From a virus, in IMG/VR virus record IMGVR_UViG_3300026538_000054, positions 1 through 64,000 of that record: a DNA stretch of 64,000 bases. One strand, 5' to 3'. The position numbers were made by a program, and so were the translations under genes. This document shows positions 19,142 through 37,724 of the stretch, piece after piece. Under the pieces are notes generated by a model. The model was not told the DNA's origin and did no database searches. It saw only the letters and a program-made list of their open reading frames with translations. How positions within the stretch are numbered: position 1 is the first letter of the stretch; each line of letters begins with the position of its first letter.

Positions 19142-19735
19142 ATGAGCGAAGGCGCCTATATCGTCGGCAAGAATGGCGATAGCGATAAGCCACCACGGAT
19201 CGTCATCAACCCTGACTTCGACGGCGGCAAGGAGACCATGCCCTCCCGCCCTGTTGTCAGGGACGTTCCTATCGCCTCAACGCCTCAGGGCCGTTCGGGC
19301 GGGCTTAACGCCGGAACGGCCGTCACGGCCGAGGCCTTTGCAAGCCCGCGCGGGCCTTTGCCGTCGCGCGAGCCGGCCCCTCTTCCCGCTGCCCCTATCG
19401 CTTCTCCACCGCCGGCCAAGAAGCATGTTCGCGTCACCTTTGAGCGAGAAGGCAGGGACGGTCGCCCCGGCGATGTCGTCGAGGCCGTCTTCCACGAGGT
19501 GGTCATCCACGACGACGGGCTTTTCCTCACTCTGGTTTATGACCACGAGGGCGGCTCACAGTTCGTCTACCGTCCGGCCTTTACGGACGAGGCGCTGGCC
19601 GTTTGCGTCCACGGCGAGGACAACCGGCCCGATCGCGTCTTCCTTTGCTTCGCTACGGGCTACCGACTACGACATGGTCGGTTCGAGTATCAAGCCTTGA
19701 CGATTGGCGACGGGGCCCTGGTGGAGGGCCGGTAA
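19142..19735 (+). CDS. hypothetical protein
   Basis: ORF translationally coupled to portal-like gene (TAATG). Confidence 0.6.
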   Translation: MSEGAYIVGKNGDSDKPPRIVINPDFDGGKETMPSRPVVRDVPIASTPQGRSGGLNAGTAVTAEAFASPRGPLPSREPAPLPAAPIASPPPAKKHVRVTFEREGRDGRPGDVVEAVFHEVVIHDDGLFLTLVYDHEGGSQFVYRPAFTDEALAVCVHGEDNRPDRVFLCFATGYRLRHGRFEYQALTIGDGALVEGR

Positions 19736-21615
19736 TGGGGCCGTCTGCTGATCACCAGGGCCCGAACTGGTTGGGCTACGACTCCAGCTTTCCCAACCCG
19801 TGGTCCGATATCGCCAGTCTGCACATGCCGCAGACTATCCAGCGGGCGCTCTACTACTGCGAGTACGTCGCCAACCAGGATGGGACCTACGCCCAGGCCA
19901 TTAACCGGGTGGTCTCCTACTTCGTCACGGAAGTGGATTGGACGGGCGTCGGCGACGACGAGGCCGACAACTGGCGGAAGTTCTTTGACGAGTCCCTGGA
20001 CATCAAGAACTGGTTGGCGGTCATCGGCAAGGACGCAATCACATACGGCAACTCCTTTTTTTCCGTTCTTCCAGGGTTCAAGCGTTACCTGCGATGCTCT
20101 CGTTGCCATCGGTTCGAGGCGCCTTTGCGCGCCGTCGCCGAGGCGAGAGACCGTCTCAAGTACCGATGGAGCGGCTTCAAGTTCCTTGCCCAGTGTCCGG
20201 CCTGCGGCCACGACGGCGAGATGCAGCATGTGGACCGGAGGGTCTTCGACGAGACGTCATGCCGGGTCAAGCGGTGGTCGCCTCACGACATCGAGATCCT
20301 TTGGGACCCCTTCACCGACGACACCCGGTACGTCTGGAAGATCCCGGAGGAGTACCGGCGCGCGATCAGGAAGGGCGACCTCTTCCACCTGGAGAGGGCC
20401 CCCTGGGAGGTCGTCGAGGCGGTCAGGGACAACCAGCACTTCCTCTTTGAAGACGGATTTGTTTACCACATGCGGGAGTGTGCTCTGGCCGGCATGCGCA
20501 ACCGCGGCTGGGGCATCTCGCGGATGCTCTCCAACTTCCGCCAGACCTGGTACGTGCAGGTCCTGAGGAGGTTCAACGAGGCCATCGCCCTCGACTACGT
20601 CATGCCCTTCCGGCTCTTGACACCGGCCCCTGGCGACAAGCAGGCCGGCACGGACCCGCTCACGAACATGAGCGCTGGCGGCAACGTGGCCCGTATCAAC
20701 TCCATGTTGCGACACAGGAAGCGCGACCCGGCCGCCTGGCACGTGTTGCCCTTCGCCCTGCAGTACCAGGCCCTGGGCGGCGAGGCCAAGCAACTGGCCC
20801 CTGTGGAGTTGATCGCGCAGGGCCAGGAGACGCAACTGGCCAATATCGGCATTCCGATCGAGCTGTGGAAGGGCAGTCTGACCATGCAGACCGCCCCGCC
20901 GGCCATTCGCCTTTTCGAGGCGAGTTGGAGCTCCTTGCCGCACGGCCTCAACGGCGCGCTTCGTTTCTTGAAGCGTGCTGTTGCCCGCATCAGGAACTGG
21001 GAGGAGCCGGACGCCTCGCTCGTGCCGCCGACCCATGCGGACGACCTCACGGCGCAACAGGCGATCCTGCAGCTCATGATGGGCGGGCAGGTGTCCCCCA
21101 CCACGGGCCTGCGCGTCTTGCGGCTGCGCTACCGGGACGAAGCGAAGAAGATACTCGACGACCAGAAGTACCAGGCGGAGCTCCAGGCTCGGTCGCAGAA
21201 GGAGATGGAGAGCGCGGCCCAGATGGAACAGATGGCCAGCCAGCCCGGAGGGGCTGGCCCCGGACAGGCGCAAGGGCAAGGAGGCGGCGCTCCCGCGGAT
21301 CAAGGCGCTCAGGGTGCTCAAGGCGGACAGCAGCCTGCCGGGCCCCAGGGGCAGGCCCTTCAGGACGTCGCCTCGAGCCTCAAGATCGACGAGAACTCGC
21401 CTATCACTCCGCAAGAGATGTTCCAGCGCGCCGACACGGCTGCGTCGCAGTTGCTAGGAATGAGCCCGACCCAGCGCAACAGCGAGCTGCGAAAGATCAA
21501 GCAGTCGAACCCGCATATTCATCCCTACGTGGTCGAGCGGCTGGAGGCCAAGCGACGCGAAGCGTCCAACCAGGGGAGAGAGGCGGTCTTGCAACAGCAG
21601 TACGGCGGTGGATGA
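19735..21615 (+). CDS. putative phage portal protein with zinc-ribbon insertion
   Basis: about 626 aa; D..TYGNSF and GWGIS-type motifs typical of portals; CxxC..CxxC insert; Q/G-rich C-terminus. Confidence 0.5.
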   Translation: MGPSADHQGPNWLGYDSSFPNPWSDIASLHMPQTIQRALYYCEYVANQDGTYAQAINRVVSYFVTEVDWTGVGDDEADNWRKFFDESLDIKNWLAVIGKDAITYGNSFFSVLPGFKRYLRCSRCHRFEAPLRAVAEARDRLKYRWSGFKFLAQCPACGHDGEMQHVDRRVFDETSCRVKRWSPHDIEILWDPFTDDTRYVWKIPEEYRRAIRKGDLFHLERAPWEVVEAVRDNQHFLFEDGFVYHMRECALAGMRNRGWGISRMLSNFRQTWYVQVLRRFNEAIALDYVMPFRLLTPAPGDKQAGTDPLTNMSAGGNVARINSMLRHRKRDPAAWHVLPFALQYQALGGEAKQLAPVELIAQGQETQLANIGIPIELWKGSLTMQTAPPAIRLFEASWSSLPHGLNGALRFLKRAVARIRNWEEPDASLVPPTHADDLTAQQAILQLMMGGQVSPTTGLRVLRLRYRDEAKKILDDQKYQAELQARSQKEMESAAQMEQMASQPGGAGPGQAQGQGGGAPADQGAQGAQGGQQPAGPQGQALQDVASSLKIDENSPITPQEMFQRADTAASQLLGMSPTQRNSELRKIKQSNPHIHPYVVERLEAKRREASNQGREAVLQQQYGGG

Positions 21616-24099: not shown

Positions 24100-24547
24100 C
24101 TCGAAGATGACCGATGAGATCGAGGCGGCCGTGCGTTGGTGGGTAAGCGCCTTGCGCAGCCCGCACTTTGACAACGGCGACGCGCTTACGAGCGGCCTCG
24201 CCAGGATGGCCGCCTTACAGGTGAGTGTGTCGGAGGAGGCCCTGGCTACGTTCGGTCGCCTTCTCTCGGAGAGGCTGCCGGCTTTCCTTCGGGCTGGCTG
24301 GTGGGACAAGGCCATCGCCGAAAACTGCCAGTCTCTTGGCTCTGCCGCCCGCGTGCTCGTCTGCGACTACGGCCCTGGCGGTCTTCTGCGCGACTGCGCC
24401 AGCGACGCCGGCGTGTCTGGGCTGCGGTTCCCTTTCAAGACCTGTATGCGTATCAACCCCGGCTGCGTTCAGGTAGGTTGCGGTTACCGAGCGCCGTTCG
24501 AGGTGATACACGGTGACGTTCAGCCACGCCAGGACGACGAACCATGA
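24083..24547 (+). CDS. hypothetical protein
   Basis: GGAGG RBS, ORF. Confidence 0.6.
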   Translation: MDLVRDSKMTDEIEAAVRWWVSALRSPHFDNGDALTSGLARMAALQVSVSEEALATFGRLLSERLPAFLRAGWWDKAIAENCQSLGSAARVLVCDYGPGGLLRDCASDAGVSGLRFPFKTCMRINPGCVQVGCGYRAPFEVIHGDVQPRQDDEP

Positions 24548-24616
24548 CCGAGGAGTAATAGTTCTGGCCAACAAGCAGTTTGAGCACCTTTTGGAGGACC
24601 AGTACGATGGCGAACA

Positions 24617-24653
24617 GTCGCAGCATTCAGCCCGCTGCGGAGGGCTTTGGTCC
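24617..24653 (-). repeat. solo diverged CRISPR repeat
   Basis: reverse complement GGACCAAAGCCCTCCGCAGCGGGCTGAATGCTGCGAC. Confidence 0.85.
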
Positions 24654-24786
24654 AGCGGTCATCGTAGCACGTGCTAACTCTGTCGCCCGTCGAAATGAGC
24701 GCTCGCGAGTGGCTGATACAGGTCTGCGAGGCCCACAGGGCCAGGCAGCCATGGCGTCTTGTTGATTCACAGGCAGGTCCTTAACC

Positions 24787-24823
24787 GCGCCAAGGCTCTC
24801 TGCAGCGGACTAAATGCTGCAAA
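24787..24823 (+). repeat. solo diverged CRISPR repeat
   Basis: GCGCCAAGGCTCTCTGCAGCGGACTAAATGCTGCAAA. Confidence 0.7.
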
Positions 24824-24948
24824 ACCAATCGGTCCCACCTTTCAGGCCCCCTCTGTTGCTACCGTACATCCGTTCACAGAGTCAGGGCCTGCGCGGCGGC
24901 GCGGTAGCCGCGGCTGGCGATCCGGCCGACCCATGAAGGAGCGCTATC

Positions 24949-26835
24949 TTGAGCGAACAACTTGACGACACGCCCGAACAACCGAACGAGGTCGAAGAGA
25001 CCAAGAAGAGGAAACAACGCAACAAAGGCAAGCACCCGGCCAGGATCTGGAGCGTCTTCTCCAGATACCTGGTCTCGGGGCGTGAGCACTTCGACAAGCA
25101 GGTGCTCCTGGCCCATCGGTTCAGGAACAAGCTCGTGGAGCTGGAGCTCCAGCGGCGCGCCGCCGCCAACGTCGTGATCGCGCAGGCCTCTTCCGAGCTG
25201 CAGCCTTTGATCGACGCCCTGGCCGCCGCTGAGCAGGTTCTCGAAGTCAGTCTTCAAGAGCTGAAGGCCGTGAGGGCCAAGCACAGGAGAAGGGCTGAAA
25301 GCGCGGCGCAACGAGATGCTGTCACCAACGCGAGGACGGCTAGGAACCAGGCCTCCAAGGCCCTCTCTAAAGCCAGGAAGGACGCCTTCGCTTCCGAGGC
25401 GGCGCAGGTCGGCCTCTGGCTTGCGGAGGAGCACCACTTCCAGGCCGTCCTGGCCGCCCGTCATGCTTTCATCAACGACGGCCTCTACTGGCCGACGGCC
25501 ACGGACGTCCAGGACCGTGCGCGCGCCATGCGAAAGGGTGCCCCTCCCGTCTTCAGGCGGTTCGGCGGCGCGGAGCAAGCGGGCCGCATCGCCGTCCAGA
25601 TCCAGAAGAGCACCGACAAGTCCCAGTCTGAGGGCGGCATCACCTTTGAGGAGGCCTTCTCCTGCTCCCACGGCTTCTTCCGGCTGGAGAAGAAGCCAGG
25701 GCGCGACCCTTTGCCAGAGATCGCCGACCAGCCCGACTACAAGTCCAAACGGCAACAGCTCCTGACCTACGCCCGCGCCTGGCTGCGCGTCGGCTCGGAG
25801 GGCAAGGGCGCCAGGGCCAAGCCCTGCTGGGTCGTCGCCGATGTGCTTCTCACCCGGCAGGCCCCCAAGACGGCGCGGATCGTCCAGGTCTACCTGGACC
25901 ACTCGGTGATCGGCGATCGAGAGCGCTGGCGACTCAGCTTGGTGCTCACCAACCAAGAGGGCTGGCCCAAGCCCAACCGGGCCTCGGGCTGCATGGTCGG
26001 TATTGACCTCGGCTGGCGACTGCTCGATACCGGTGAGCTGCGAGTCGCCTACGCCTGCGGCGCCGATGGACAGCACCACGAGCTGCGGCTGCCCGCCTCC
26101 CTGGTCAAGGTCTGGCGCCGGCCCGATCGCATCCAGCAGGAGAGGGACAACCTCTTCAACGACGTCAAGGCGAGGCTCCTTGAGTGGCTCAAAGGGAGGG
26201 AGGACCTTCCCGACTGGCTCAAGGAGCAAGCGGAGCATCTGCATCTCTGGAAGTCATCCACCAGGCTCTCGCGGCTGGTGGATCACTGGGCCGGTCGAGA
26301 TATCAACTGGTCGAGCCAGAGGCGCATCGCCGGGGACGAGGAGATCCTCGCGTCCTTGCGCGGCTGGGTGAAACGCAACCTCCACCTGCGCGACTACCAG
26401 TATCACGAGCGTGAGCAGTTGGCGGCCCATCGTCTTGATGTCTACAGGAAGTGGGCTGACGGTCTGGCCAGGCTCTACCAGACGGCCGTCCTCGAAGACG
26501 CCGACTGGCGAGACCTAGCGCGACTCCCATCGCCTGAAGACGACGCCGTCAACGAGACCGCGCGCTACAACCAACGCATGGCCTCGCCCGGTCTACTGGC
26601 CTCCGTGATCACGAACATGTTCGCGATCACGAGCAGGGTGGAGTGCGCGAACACCACCAGGGAGTGCTGGCGCTGCGGCCATACGGAGGCGTTCGACGCC
26701 GAGGCGCAGTTGATCAGGGTTTGTCCTGGCTGCGGTGATGCGTGCGACCAAGACGAGAGCGCTGCTCGCGTCCTGCTCGCGAGAGGGCAGGCCCTAAACC
26801 AGTCACAAGTCGCCGAAGCTGCGCCAAGTTCTTGA
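24949..26835 (+). CDS. cas12m: compact type V CRISPR effector, Cas12m (V-M/V-U1)-like
   Basis: 628 aa; LAHRFRNKLVE, LYWPT, GRIAVQIQ, long coiled coil; RuvC-I GIDLGWR, RuvC-II VLED, CxxC-CxxC Zn finger, RuvC-III DQDESAA; directly followed by CRISPR array. Confidence 0.75.
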   Translation: MSEQLDDTPEQPNEVEETKKRKQRNKGKHPARIWSVFSRYLVSGREHFDKQVLLAHRFRNKLVELELQRRAAANVVIAQASSELQPLIDALAAAEQVLEVSLQELKAVRAKHRRRAESAAQRDAVTNARTARNQASKALSKARKDAFASEAAQVGLWLAEEHHFQAVLAARHAFINDGLYWPTATDVQDRARAMRKGAPPVFRRFGGAEQAGRIAVQIQKSTDKSQSEGGITFEEAFSCSHGFFRLEKKPGRDPLPEIADQPDYKSKRQQLLTYARAWLRVGSEGKGARAKPCWVVADVLLTRQAPKTARIVQVYLDHSVIGDRERWRLSLVLTNQEGWPKPNRASGCMVGIDLGWRLLDTGELRVAYACGADGQHHELRLPASLVKVWRRPDRIQQERDNLFNDVKARLLEWLKGREDLPDWLKEQAEHLHLWKSSTRLSRLVDHWAGRDINWSSQRRIAGDEEILASLRGWVKRNLHLRDYQYHEREQLAAHRLDVYRKWADGLARLYQTAVLEDADWRDLARLPSPEDDAVNETARYNQRMASPGLLASVITNMFAITSRVECANTTRECWRCGHTEAFDAEAQLIRVCPGCGDACDQDESAARVLLARGQALNQSQVAEAAPSS

Positions 26836-27015
26836 TAGGCTGGAACTTGCGTCGCTTTTGAGCCAGAAGTGGCGCTCGCGCGACGCAAGTTCCATACTAG
26901 TTAGTGTTTACGGCGGCTACCGTGTAGCAACTTGTCGTAACGGGTCGTCTGGTTGGTAACGCGCTCGCGTGGCTGGTTGTAACCTCTTGTCCTATCGCGT
27001 GCTACGCTACCGAGG
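26836..27015 (+). promoter_or_regulatory. CRISPR leader
   Basis: non-coding, lower GC, GCGCTCGCG repeated at 26872 and 26961; the degenerate repeats are at the far end of the array. Confidence 0.6.
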
Positions 27016-28304
27016 GTGACAAAGCCCTGTGCAGCGGGCTCAAAGCTGCGACGGGTCGTGAGCCGTCTGCTCGAGACGGTCGGCGATCTGGTGACAAAGC
27101 CCTGTGCAGCGGGCTCAAAGCTGCGACTCGCTCATGGTTGCGTTCCTTTCGGTGGACCCGGTGGTGACAAAGCCCTGTGCAGCGGGCTCAAAGCTGCGAC
27201 TACAAGACCTGGATGACGATCTTCCCCAACGTCCCGCAGTGACAAAGCCCTGTGCAGCGGGCTCAAAGCTGCGACGTTGTCCGGCGGCTTCGGCTCGACC
27301 TGGATGATCTCGTGACAAAGCCCTGTGCAGCGGGCTCAATGCTGCGACGTACTATGTACCGGAAAAGGCTCTCGAGGAGGCCGTGTGACAAAGCCCTGTG
27401 CAGCGGGCTCAAAGCTGCGACGGCGGCTGTCTTCGAGTTCGCCTCCGGGAGGAGATGGTGACAAAGCCCTGTGCAGCGGGCTCAAAGCTGCGACTAATGC
27501 TCCTTTAACAGGCGGAACGCTTCTTCCGCCGTGACAAAGCCCTGTGCAGCGGGCTCAAAGCTGCGACAAACCGTGCCGAAAGGTATCCTCATGTCCGATT
27601 CGTGACAAAGCCCTGTGCAGCGGGCTCAAAGCTGCGACGTGCTGCTCGGGCTGCTCGGGCTGCTTGGGCTGCTTGGGGTGACAAAGCCCTGTGCAGCGGG
27701 CTCAAAGCTGCGACCGGCAAGCTGGACGTTCAGCGAGCGGCCGACGTGATGTGACAAAGCCCTGTGCAGCGGGCTCAAAGCTGCGACTAGCTGGCTGCCT
27801 TGCACGACTGCGCAAATGCCCGGAAGTGACAAAGCCCTGTGCAGCGGGCTCAAAGCTGCGACTGGGTGCGCGTTGACCAGGACAACCGCGAGCTGATCGG
27901 TGACAAAGCCCTGTGCAGCGGGCTCAAAGCTGCGACTCCAGCAACTGGGGCCCAGGCCGACCCTCGGGCACATCGTGACAAAGCCCTGTGCAGCGGGCTC
28001 AAAGCTGCGACGACCGGCGTTCCTCAAGTCGCAACACGGCCTTGCCAGGTGACAAAGCCCTGTGCAGCGGGCTCAAAGCTGCGACGCACATGTGTTCTTT
28101 TGTCCCCTGCTTCGCCACCGTGTAACAAAGCCCTGTGCAGCGGGCTCAAAGCTGCGACGGTTGCTGCCGACCGCTTGGTCGCGGAGGAGGTTCGCGTGCC
28201 AAAGCCCTCCCCAGTGGGCTAAAAGCTGCGACCGCCACTCCGTCACTTGAATGCTGTCGGTCTTTTTGTGCCAAAGCCCTACGCAGCGGGCTACAAGCTG
28301 CAAC
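27016..28304 (+). CRISPR. CRISPR array: 18 repeats (37 bp GTGACAAAGCCCTGTGCAGCGGGCTCAAAGCTGCGAC), 17 spacers of 34-39 bp
   Basis: counted directly; last two repeats degenerate. Confidence 0.98.
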
Positions 28305-28335
28305 GACGTGAATCGCTCCCAAACAGGAGTCAGCG

Positions 28336-29052
28336 ATGCCCTTTAAGTCCGAGGCGCAGCGTGGCTGGATGTTTTCAAACCATCCTTCCATGGCCAGGCG
28401 CTGGCAGAAAGAGACGACCTCGGGCAAGAAACTGCCTCGCTACGTCAAGGATAAAGACAGCAAGAAGAGCGCCATGGAGTTGCTGTTCGGCGTGAAGTCG
28501 GCCGAGGACGACGACTCCGAGTCAGGCCCGCCGCCCAACCTGCGAGACGCCGTCGGCTCCGTTACCACGTGCGGCACGTGCAAGCACTTCGACCCCGCTC
28601 AGGCGGCCTGCAGGAAGTACGGTTACCCGGTTGGCGCCGCCATGACCTGTGACGCCTGGGAAGGAAAAGCAAGCCCGTCGATCTCTTTGGGCATGGCCGG
28701 GCCGGCAGCGCCTACTCCCGCGTCCACGCTCGGGATGACATCTCAGGAAGAGACCAAGTCCGCCGCTGACGCAGGCCCCGTCAAGCCCATTCGGCCCGTT
28801 GGCTTCAACAGCGCTTATGGCCCCACGTCTCTCTTCCGTTCTTCCGTAGGGGCCGCTTCTCCTGCGCAAAGAGCAGGCGGTCTTCCTGCTCTACTTGGCC
28901 ACCTGGCGCGCGGCCCGATCGGTCCCTCGTTACCTGCTAATCTGCAACAGGAGCAGAGGCCGGAAGAAGGCCCCGTCACCACGACGAGTGGTGCGCCCCT
29001 GCCTCAGCCGAAACAGCCCGGTCCTTTCCCTTTGCAGGCCCTGCGCGGCTGA
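28336..29052 (+). CDS. phage protein, MPFKSEAQR-type N-terminus plus Cys cluster; putative virion protein
   Basis: MPFKSEAQRGWMFSNHP, CGTCKHF..C..C, KSA motifs. Confidence 0.55.
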   Translation: MPFKSEAQRGWMFSNHPSMARRWQKETTSGKKLPRYVKDKDSKKSAMELLFGVKSAEDDDSESGPPPNLRDAVGSVTTCGTCKHFDPAQAACRKYGYPVGAAMTCDAWEGKASPSISLGMAGPAAPTPASTLGMTSQEETKSAADAGPVKPIRPVGFNSAYGPTSLFRSSVGAASPAQRAGGLPALLGHLARGPIGPSLPANLQQEQRPEEGPVTTTSGAPLPQPKQPGPFPLQALRG

Positions 29053-29077
29053 GGCGCTCGAACAAAAAGGCTATTTC

Positions 29078-30331
29078 ATGAAGACCGAGATCACCGTTGA
29101 CGCCGACCTGGAGCTGGTGCGCGGCGCGTTTCCGGGCGGTGCCTACGCACAGGCTCGTCAGGCCATCCTGGACAAGCGATGCTGCAAGGTCGTGATCAAG
29201 AAGTTGGGCGAAGGCGTCTGGGAGGCGACCTTCCAGGGCACGGGCGTGGACGGCGAAGAAGATCTGGTTGTCTGGCTGGACAGGCTGCCGGAGAAGGTGC
29301 TTGCTCTCTTCGCGGAGCCCGTGCAGATTGACTACCGGGATGAATTGAAGAAGATGGTCGAGGAAGCGAAGTGCCAGGCGGAGGCTGAGGCTCGGTTGAT
29401 GGAGGCGATGGCGACCGGCGCGTTTCCGCCTTACCCGGTCATCATGCCGCTCCTGCCGGCGAGCTACCGGGAGGAAGTGAAGAAGATCCTCGCAGAGCAA
29501 AAGCGGGACCCGGCGGCCTGGACGAAGGTATTGCCTACCGACATCGAGATGAGACCTGGCAGGTCGACGGAACTGCTCCAGCTCGCCGAAACTGCCGAAA
29601 CTTATGCCCAACACCTTCTCGGTATGGGTGGCGACCAGCGAAGCATCGAGCTGCGAAAGCTCCAGCAGTCGGACTCGGTCCTCTATTCCTACGTGGTCGA
29701 GCGACTGGATACCTGGCGACGGGCCGCCACCGGGCTGCAAAACGTGCCAGGTGCCGACCCCAAGGACGAGACGCTTCAGTCGGTCCGCGTGGACGAAAGC
29801 GCCAACTACCTGCTGCCGGGAGAGCGCGCGTTTCTTGTCCCACGGTCGGTTGTTGCGCAGTTTCTGAACTGCCCGTGCGACCGTTGCCGCAGGTTTCTCT
29901 CGTGTCTCGCCGATGTTGCCGCTGTCGCCATCAAGGAAGACTATTGTCGCGTCAGTATCCGGTGTATCGGCGTCAAGTCGACTAACTGGATCGGGGCCAC
30001 CTCGAGCTTCGGCGAGGCGATGTTCGAGCTTCGCGACATGCCTCCCGCTATCCGGGCCCTCTGGGACAGGCCCGTTACCGTGTCCGCGGCCGACGGTTAC
30101 TATCGGCTCTTTGAGGGCGAAGTTGTCCCTGGCAAGGGAGCGTTCGTCCATGCCGCCTGGCTGAGCGCCATCCTCGCCGTGAGTCCGCCCGAGCTTGTGC
30201 TCGGCCGCCCCTTCCGTCCCATCGTCTGCGACGGCCCTGGTCAGTGGTACTACCTCAGTGACGACGGCAGCAAGCACCCCTTTTCGCTGGCGGCAGCGTT
30301 CAAGGCCAGGGCCATTTTCGTCAAGACTTGA
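29078..30331 (+). CDS. hypothetical protein containing a copy of the portal C-terminal helical domain
   Basis: internal similarity to 21409-21560. Confidence 0.6.
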   Translation: MKTEITVDADLELVRGAFPGGAYAQARQAILDKRCCKVVIKKLGEGVWEATFQGTGVDGEEDLVVWLDRLPEKVLALFAEPVQIDYRDELKKMVEEAKCQAEAEARLMEAMATGAFPPYPVIMPLLPASYREEVKKILAEQKRDPAAWTKVLPTDIEMRPGRSTELLQLAETAETYAQHLLGMGGDQRSIELRKLQQSDSVLYSYVVERLDTWRRAATGLQNVPGADPKDETLQSVRVDESANYLLPGERAFLVPRSVVAQFLNCPCDRCRRFLSCLADVAAVAIKEDYCRVSIRCIGVKSTNWIGATSSFGEAMFELRDMPPAIRALWDRPVTVSAADGYYRLFEGEVVPGKGAFVHAAWLSAILAVSPPELVLGRPFRPIVCDGPGQWYYLSDDGSKHPFSLAAAFKARAIFVKT

Positions 30332-37223: not shown

Positions 37224-37724
37224 ATGTCCGAACACGAGTTGCTGCGCTCCATCAATCAACGCCTCGCACACATAGGCCGCTCGACGGACGCTATCGCCTC
37301 GGCTGTCTTCCTTATCGTGCGAAAGTTGCTCGATGAGGAGCAAGGTGGCCTGTCGCCCGAAGACGCCGCCAAAGTGCTCGCCCGACTGACGGCCCACGAC
37401 CAAGCTCTCGAGGACATCGTCGCCGAGCAAACCGACGAGAGCTCTTCCACGCTCGGCAAACACCACTCAGTAGCGAGAACCGCGATGGCTATTCCGCAAG
37501 CCTTGCAGGACATCTTGGCCAAGATTGACGCCGACACCAGCGCCCTGGCCGCGGTGGTCCTGGACCTGCGCAACAAGATCAGCACGGGCATGTCCCAGGA
37601 GGACGTGGTCGCCGTACAGACCACCCTGGGTCAGATCGCCGACCGTCTCGAGCAGACGGCTCACGACCCCAACGCGCCGGTGCCGCCCGGCCCTCAACCG
37701 GTCTTCGCCGGCCGCAAGCCGTAA
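37224..37724 (+). CDS. coiled-coil hypothetical protein; contains the protospacer for spacer 1
   Basis: ORF; 37632-37669 is the exact reverse complement of spacer 1. Confidence 0.65.
   Translation: MSEHELLRSINQRLAHIGRSTDAIASAVFLIVRKLLDEEQGGLSPEDAAKVLARLTAHDQALEDIVAEQTDESSSTLGKHHSVARTAMAIPQALQDILAKIDADTSALAAVVLDLRNKISTGMSQEDVVAVQTTLGQIADRLEQTAHDPNAPVPPGPQPVFAGRKP

Follow-up and report, generated by a model that had tools for sequence, protein, structure and literature searches.

An intact D-E-D RuvC site in ApCas12m, a published type V-M effector encoded beside a self-targeting CRISPR array on a phage-like element

The cas12m locus and its carrier element

The window analysed in this study, a 64,000-nt stretch of viral DNA (IMG/VR record IMGVR_UViG_3300026538_000054, positions 1 to 64,000), carries a cas12m gene followed by a CRISPR array, and the features of this locus are collected in Table 1. 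The TTG at 24949 is the earliest start codon in the cas12m open frame. The frame is intact over 628 codons with a GC3 of 0.82, similar to that of the neighbouring genes, and the 5.4-Mb assembly holds no second copy of the gene. The first-pass annotation of this DNA had described a Cas12m-like protein with an acidic triad and a zinc finger, and both were confirmed. The translation places D353 in MVGIDLGWR, E516 in TAVLEDADW and D602 in CDQDESAAR and agrees with the alignment of the catalytic columns, and the cysteines C573/C576 and C592/C595 are present in columns conserved in the family. The sole Pfam match was a weak one below threshold, to the Cas12f1-like TNB domain PF07282, which is common to TnpB, and NCBIfam assigned no family to the 628-aa protein. 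In the 64-kb window neither Rfam at gathering thresholds nor a tRNA scan gave a match, and no promoter was detected in a scan of 24400-28500.

Table 1. Coordinates of the features of the cas12m locus and of its self-target, numbered from the first nucleotide of the window
Feature	Position	Strand	Basis
GAAGGAG resembling a Shine-Dalgarno site, 7 nt ahead of the TTG start	24936..24942	+	sequence read directly
cas12m gene, 628 aa (ApCas12m / TMJ00921.1)	24949..26835	+	open reading frame, coordinates and published tables
D353 codon (RuvC-I, GIDLGWR)	26005..26007	+	translation, alignment columns
E516 codon (RuvC-II, VLED)	26494..26496	+	translation, alignment columns
Zinc finger / TNB domain, C573-x2-C576 ... 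C592-x2-C595	26665..26733	+	translation, alignment, PF07282 below cut-off
D602 codon (RuvC-III, DQDESAA)	26752..26754	+	translation, alignment columns
Presumed leader, 180-nt gap from cas12m stop to first repeat	26836..27015	+	inferred
CRISPR array (18 repeats, each 37 nt; 17 spacers, each 34-39 nt)	27016..28304	+	sequence read
Spacer 1, self-targeting, adjoining the presumed leader	27053..27090	+	sequence match
Protospacer of spacer 1, 38/38 (37632-37669), with 5'-TTG PAM (37670-37672)	37632..37672	-	sequence match

The protein encoded here is already in print. The window corresponds to the minus strand of G000:C51:102146-166145, which places cas12m at C51:139311-141197, equal to VBAH01000059.1:139311-141197 (-). 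Table S1 of Bigelyte et al. 2024 (PMC11013384) gives VBAH01000059.1 139311 141197 -, TMJ00921.1, Alphaproteobacteria bacterium and 628, and Table S2 of the same paper lists ApCas12m with D353, E516, D602, 628, 71.2 and TMJ00921.1. About 400 N-terminal residues of our translation agree with Table S1, and the last 120 residues agree with Table S3 apart from a single extra letter in the machine-read PDF. The 'Ap' crRNA of Table S5, marked like the crRNAs of the other seven variants for use in Figures 1D and S3, consists of GG, the 37-nt repeat of the window and a 20-nt guide. The open reading frame at 24949-26835 is identical to ApCas12m in coordinates, length, triad numbering, the checked sequence stretches and the repeat, and is the published ApCas12m; the D-E-D observation is real but not new. 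A literature search on ApCas12m / Cas12m4 found no further papers.

The carrier contig (C51) has a length of 199,122 bp and a 100-bp terminal overlap, and because of this overlap it is circular or terminally redundant. Among its genes are those for a DnaB-like helicase, a 1,468-aa DNA polymerase, a UvsX-like recombinase and a dCMP deaminase, for proteins with KilA-N and P63C domains and for a baseplate wedge subunit, and one further gene is virion-protein-like. Terminase_6N matches were found on other contigs of the assembly and none on this one. On account of the baseplate wedge match, the virion-protein match and the replication genes, the contig is, as judged from its gene content, a large phage or phage-like element assembled together with an alphaproteobacterial genome.

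Family placement and the state of the RuvC site

A single-sequence search of the PDB chains returned 23vw_A (Cas12m) at E 2.8e-52, and a family profile built from 70 relatives was used for the comparison with solved structures. This profile matched nearly the whole chain of 23vw (E 4e-154) and of UnCas12m4a (23vu, E 7e-56), and in both of them the columns of D353, E516 and D602 hold D, E and D. It also matched nearly the whole chain of Cas12m2 (8hhl and 8hio, E about 2e-73, 1.8e-73) and of GoCas12m (8pm4, E 4.4e-71), and these scores lie far outside the range of chance. In case of Cas12m2 the triad columns hold H317, D485 and D579, the residues named as its active site (PMC10442227), and in case of GoCas12m they hold H, D and D. 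Chains of TnpB, Fanzor and Cas12f aligned only to profile positions ~420 to 560, the C-terminal 130-140, at E 1e-14 or weaker. The placement among the named Cas12m proteins is based on these profile E-values against PDB chains; a scan of genome contigs for named Cas12m references with a 12-sequence alignment gave 5 loci, none of them a characterised orthologue, and the tree described below was built without the named Mm, Go and Ms sequences.

The structure prediction proposed in the first-pass annotation leads to the same placement. The AlphaFold2 model of the 628-aa protein has a mean pLDDT of 89.9 and a pTM of 0.86, and it shows a bilobed fold with WED, a REC1/REC2 coiled-coil insertion (the long helices at 45-176), RuvC and a TNB zinc finger. 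The triad lies at the usual positions of the RNase-H fold, namely the strand 349-358, the end of the strand 512-517 and the start of the helix 601-624, and the 10-residue blocks around D353, E516 and D602 have a pLDDT of 95-97. The best Foldseek matches were Cas12m2 (8hhl) and GoCas12m (8pm4), which align over the full length with a TM of 0.71-0.75, whereas Cas12f and TnpB reached at most 0.6. Alignment and model together indicate that the product is a type V-M Cas12m effector and that D353, E516 and D602 occupy the RuvC catalytic positions; the concern that these acidic residues might lie elsewhere is answered by the columns of the solved Cas12m chains. An intermediate between TnpB and Cas12m, which had also been suggested, is not supported, because the Cas12m structures match over the full length including the REC coiled coil, whereas TnpB and Cas12f match the C-terminus only. 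Active RuvC nucleases additionally have a supporting arginine in the zinc-finger (TNB/Nuc) domain and an open path (lid) by which the substrate reaches the active site. The family consensus has no Arg that is conserved from one CxxC pair to the other, although the position equivalent to this arginine may lie elsewhere.

A word-indexed protein search returned 5 relatives only, whereas the exhaustive search returned 2,902 cluster representatives, of which 1,142 had an E-value below 1e-30. Among the nearest 150 cluster representatives, the triad columns hold D in 129, E in 127 and D in 149, and the four zinc-finger Cys columns are kept in 145-150 of the 150. The phage-borne IMG/VR loci show D-E-D in 53/62. 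A FastTree phylogeny of 199 sampled relatives contains 166 D-E-D sequences, which makes D-E-D the majority state of the family among the sampled relatives. The query and its 86%-identical partner, an orthologue in which the triad and all four zinc-finger cysteines are kept, form a long branch within a D-E-D-majority clade of this tree, and the nearest sampled relatives apart from P0002 are at most 40% identical.

The midpoint root of the tree is reconstructed as D-E-D, and the tree requires no fewer than 22 departures from this state. The first Asp and the Glu are both present in 166 of the 199 sequences and both absent in 25, and one occurs alone in 8. Among the 22 independent groups without D-E-D, both of these residues are changed in 15 and the third Asp in 1, figures which are to be read with moderate branch supports, a midpoint root and a sample of top hits only. 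Because D353 and E516 are lost jointly in 15 of the 22 lineages, the intact pair looks as if it were selected as a unit, which a single-metal clamp does not obviously demand.

The array, its repeat and the self-targeting spacer

The arrangement at the locus is that of a type V-M array, which is adjacent to the effector gene, lies on the same strand and is built from a 37-nt repeat with a stem and a pseudoknot. Fourteen of the repeats are identical, two carry one mismatch and the last two carry 6 mismatches each. This degeneracy at the far end is the reason for presuming the leader in the gap between cas12m and the first repeat. Among the IMG/VR relatives, 43/63 are accompanied by an array, and nearly all of these arrays start a few hundred bp or less downstream of the gene. 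The repeat can be read as a stem (8-12 with 21-25) and a pseudoknot (16-20 with 30-34). Dispersed copies of the repeat show compensatory changes, from GCAGC/GCTGC to GCGGC/GCCGC and GTAGC/GCTAC, with the pseudoknot kept. The minimum-free-energy fold of the repeat scores no better than shuffled sequence; pseudoknots lie outside what the method can represent, so this was to be expected. The remark that no tracrRNA was obvious also holds, and none is expected, since Cas12m uses a single crRNA (PMC11013384).

The perfect self-target claimed in the first-pass annotation was recovered, with all 38 nucleotides of spacer 1 matching. The TTG stands immediately 5' of the protospacer on the non-target strand and fits the PAM types of Cas12m2 (TTN) and PmCas12m (YTN), and this one informative site constitutes the natural PAM evidence. 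The target lies inside an open reading frame at 37224-37724 (+) to which no function could be assigned. Spacer 15 has a near-match of 34/36 that is preceded by ATC and resembles a duplicated repeat-spacer unit. In the other 106 contigs of the assembly no convincing match to the spacers was found, the best being a 19-nt GC-rich match to spacer 4, and the leading 24 nt of spacer 1 and of spacer 2 had no exact match in IMG/VR.

With a nuclease, guide 1 would cut its own replicon, and with a binder it would only repress or stall it. A perfect, PAM-flanked self-target fits binding without cutting and agrees with the published absence of cleavage. The element probably tolerates this target because Cas12m binds without cutting. 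The first-pass annotation had offered an inhibitor, conditional activity or structural inactivation to account for it; only structural inactivation finds support in the literature.

Proposed role of the triad and comparison with known systems

ApCas12m was one of four D-E-D variants among the eight Cas12m proteins tested in PMC11013384. In the PAM-library assay none of the eight, ApCas12m included, gave double-strand breaks or an adapter-ligation signal, while six of them protected a restriction site in a PAM-dependent manner and so bound DNA; the text of the paper does not name these six. The belief that all characterised Cas12m proteins have a non-canonical site is hence out of date, as D-E-D clades 3 and 4 were defined by Wu et al. 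2022 (as quoted in PMC10442227) and four tested variants are D-E-D, and the proposal of a nuclease-active member is not supported by these assays. Moreover, purified MsCas12m, which is also D-E-D, left both DNA and RNA targets uncut and was free of collateral activity, and Cas12m2 remained unable to cleave after its site had been converted from HDD to DED. The D-E-D triad is necessary but not sufficient for an active RuvC nuclease, the latter because neither the D-E-D Cas12m variants nor the converted Cas12m2 cleave double-stranded DNA.

The best explanation of the locus, to which we assign a probability of about 0.78, is that the published type V-M effector ApCas12m and its own array reside on a circular phage-like element of ~199 kb and act by binding without double-strand cleavage. 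The array would be transcribed from the cas12m side, and Cas12m would retain a crRNA of about 50-60 nt whose 5' handle is formed by the stem and pseudoknot of the repeat. The complex would then find double-stranded DNA with a 5'-TTN-like PAM, form an R-loop and stay bound, blocking transcription or replication instead of cutting. The D-E-D site would be the ancestral state of the family, one that gives no double-strand cleavage. By analogy with H317 and D579 in Cas12m2, the triad most likely holds a Mg2+ that clamps the displaced strand.

It is unlikely that the RuvC of ApCas12m is catalytically competent on another substrate or under other conditions than those assayed. Such an activity could be a nick in the displaced strand, cleavage of single-stranded DNA or of other RNA, shortening of the guide at its 3' end, or one confined to the native host or phage; in case of RNA, the phage's own repeat-bearing transcripts may be trimmed. 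The three acidic residues are intact in a confidently predicted model, and the first two co-vary and are mostly lost together while the third is kept. For the D-E-D clades 3 and 4, an ability to hydrolyse DNA was put forward as a speculation by Omura et al., and Cas12c keeps D-E-D for pre-crRNA processing without DNase activity. Further, ApCas12m was tested in a crude in vitro transcription-translation mix in which only double-strand ends were scored, therefore nicks and single-stranded or RNA substrates would be missed, and the negative result says little if ApCas12m is one of the two non-binders. On the other hand, no double-strand breaks were obtained with ApCas12m or with other D-E-D variants, purified MsCas12m was inactive on DNA and RNA targets and in collateral cleavage and its D274A mutant still processes pre-crRNA, the gene coexists with a perfect PAM-flanked self-target, and at least 22 lineages dropped the triad and kept the protein.

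A decaying, non-functional relic that has kept its triad by inertia is very improbable. A Cas1 search across the assembly found none, the last two repeats are degenerate and a self-targeting spacer might point to an inactive system; against this stand the intact frame with a GC3 like that of its neighbours, the 86%-identical orthologue with its conserved triad and cysteines, the near-uniformity of 16 of the 18 repeats and the compensatory changes by which the dispersed repeats keep the pseudoknot. An ordinary IS200/IS605 TnpB transposon nuclease that lies near the array without using it can practically be dismissed, since, despite the TNB domain being the sole Pfam match and the lack of an NCBIfam name, the protein has 628 aa and a REC coiled coil against the ~400 aa of a TnpB lacking REC2, structural and profile matches to TnpB are partial as described above, the gene is flanked by an array instead of IS ends and occurs once, an array follows the gene in most viral relatives, and the authors of PMC11013384 paired ApCas12m with this very repeat. 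Typical TnpB genes sit in an IS element with an omega-RNA and frequently occur in several copies.

With the protein, its triad and its repeat in print and D-E-D the norm of the family, the original finding matters little by itself. What is added to the published record is a context: the ApCas12m attributed to 'Alphaproteobacteria' sits on a ~199 kb circular phage-like element with a perfect PAM-flanked self-target, and in the available parts of the text and supplements of PMC11013384 the phage-like replicon, the self-target and the dispersed repeats are not mentioned. The apparent co-selection of D and E also keeps alive the matter of what purpose an intact RuvC serves in a non-cutting effector. 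We give only a small chance to the reading in which the intact site would form, in ApCas12m and in the D-E-D majority of its family alike, a selected catalytic unit for a substrate outside the published assays.

Next to the published ApCas12m itself, the closest known systems include MsCas12m, TfCas12m and UnCas12m (PMC11013384), together with clades 3/4 of Wu et al. 2022. They are type V-M proteins with a single crRNA and a D-E-D site for which double-strand cleavage was not detected, and in case of TfCas12m plasmid interference proceeds by binding. ApCas12m differs from these three by an additional ~25-30 Lys/Arg-rich residues at its N-terminus, and the set of purified proteins does not include it. 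MmCas12m2 (8HHL/8HIO) and GoCas12m (8PM4) share the fold, the REC coiled coil, the zinc finger and the handle of stem and pseudoknot, but their triad is H-D-D and they are only ~20-22% identical to ApCas12m. Cas12c (type V-C), as cited in PMC12669027 and PMC10442227, provides a precedent for an intact D-E-D site without DNase activity and for silencing by binding. It is, however, a separate and larger Cas12 family in which RuvC carries out pre-crRNA processing, whereas in MsCas12m this processing persists in the D274A mutant. MvCas12m of myxophage MV-1 (bioRxiv 10.64898/2026.09.14.751636), compared here with ApCas12m by its description only, is likewise a phage-borne, adaptation-less V-M effector with an adjacent array and the triad D305/E463/D555, but it has 610 aa and 8 spacers for which no targets were found, whereas spacer 1 of ApCas12m matches the element that carries it.

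Dispersed copies of the CRISPR repeat

The CRISPR repeat also occurs outside the array, in about 33 diverged copies on both strands, every one of them on the contig of the phage-like element (C51). The copies inside the window are intergenic or overlap with a stop codon only, and the pseudoknot is kept in the dispersed copies via compensatory changes, GCAGC/GCTGC being replaced by GCGGC/GCCGC or GTAGC/GCTAC. Two repeat-like copies in mutually divergent orientation are located in the 400-nt gap directly upstream of cas12m, and an anti-repeat RNA would result if the minus-strand copy of this pair were read on the plus strand.

Window coordinates of the repeat copies and of the other features discussed
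Feature	Position	Strand
Dispersed repeat copies, span	11997-61315	
Dispersed repeat copies	11997, 24787, 32742, 37031/37080/37145, 54658/54731, 57069, 59252, 61208/61279	+
Dispersed repeat copies	14405, 24617, 33198, 56821/56894	-
Repeat-like copy upstream of cas12m	24617-24653	-
Repeat-like copy upstream of cas12m	24787-24823	+
Large flanking gene	19603-21615	
Large flanking gene	28895-30331	
First ~30 Cas12m residues	24949-25040	
Spacer 9	27639-27677	
Spacer 15	28086-28121	
Single-base mismatch	38798	

Array spacers and the carrying element

Spacer 15 matches positions 938-973 of the reverse complement of C51 at 34 of 36 nt, the first 26 nt being perfect. The match site lies outside the window (window coordinate about -32039) and its 5' flank, ATC, is similar to a decayed repeat end; the site has less the look of a target with a PAM beside it than of a repeat-spacer unit that has been duplicated. 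Spacer 9 consists of GCTGCTCGG / GCTGCTTGG units in a low-complexity tandem, from which the other spacers differ. No Cas1 (PF01867) was found across the whole assembly (G000), the genome being rated 100% complete. The assembly encodes nothing that could extend the array with new spacers. The same assembly contains only one Cas12m gene.

The first 100 bases of C51 are repeated at its end, hence the element is either a circle or a terminally redundant molecule, and its unit length is 199,022 bp. The cas12m-array cassette is flanked by two large genes which have a common domain (153 aa aligned at 33% identity, E 3e-13), and neither of these genes obtained a family assignment. At one position the window has G vs A in the genome sequence, which is the sole mismatch in 64,000 bases.

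Cas12m triad and N-terminus in comparison to relatives

Among the sampled Cas12m relatives (P0001-P0154) and the IMG/VR loci (L001-L063), eroded triads have usually lost the first and second positions jointly, the states including NGD, NAD, NDD and HxD, and loss of the third Asp is almost never seen. The N-terminal ~30 residues of Cas12m are acidic and then Lys/Arg-rich (KKRKQRNKGK), with pLDDT of <=60. Of the relatives, only the 86%-identical orthologue has this acidic-Lys/Arg stretch as well; the remaining relatives begin ~22-25 residues later.
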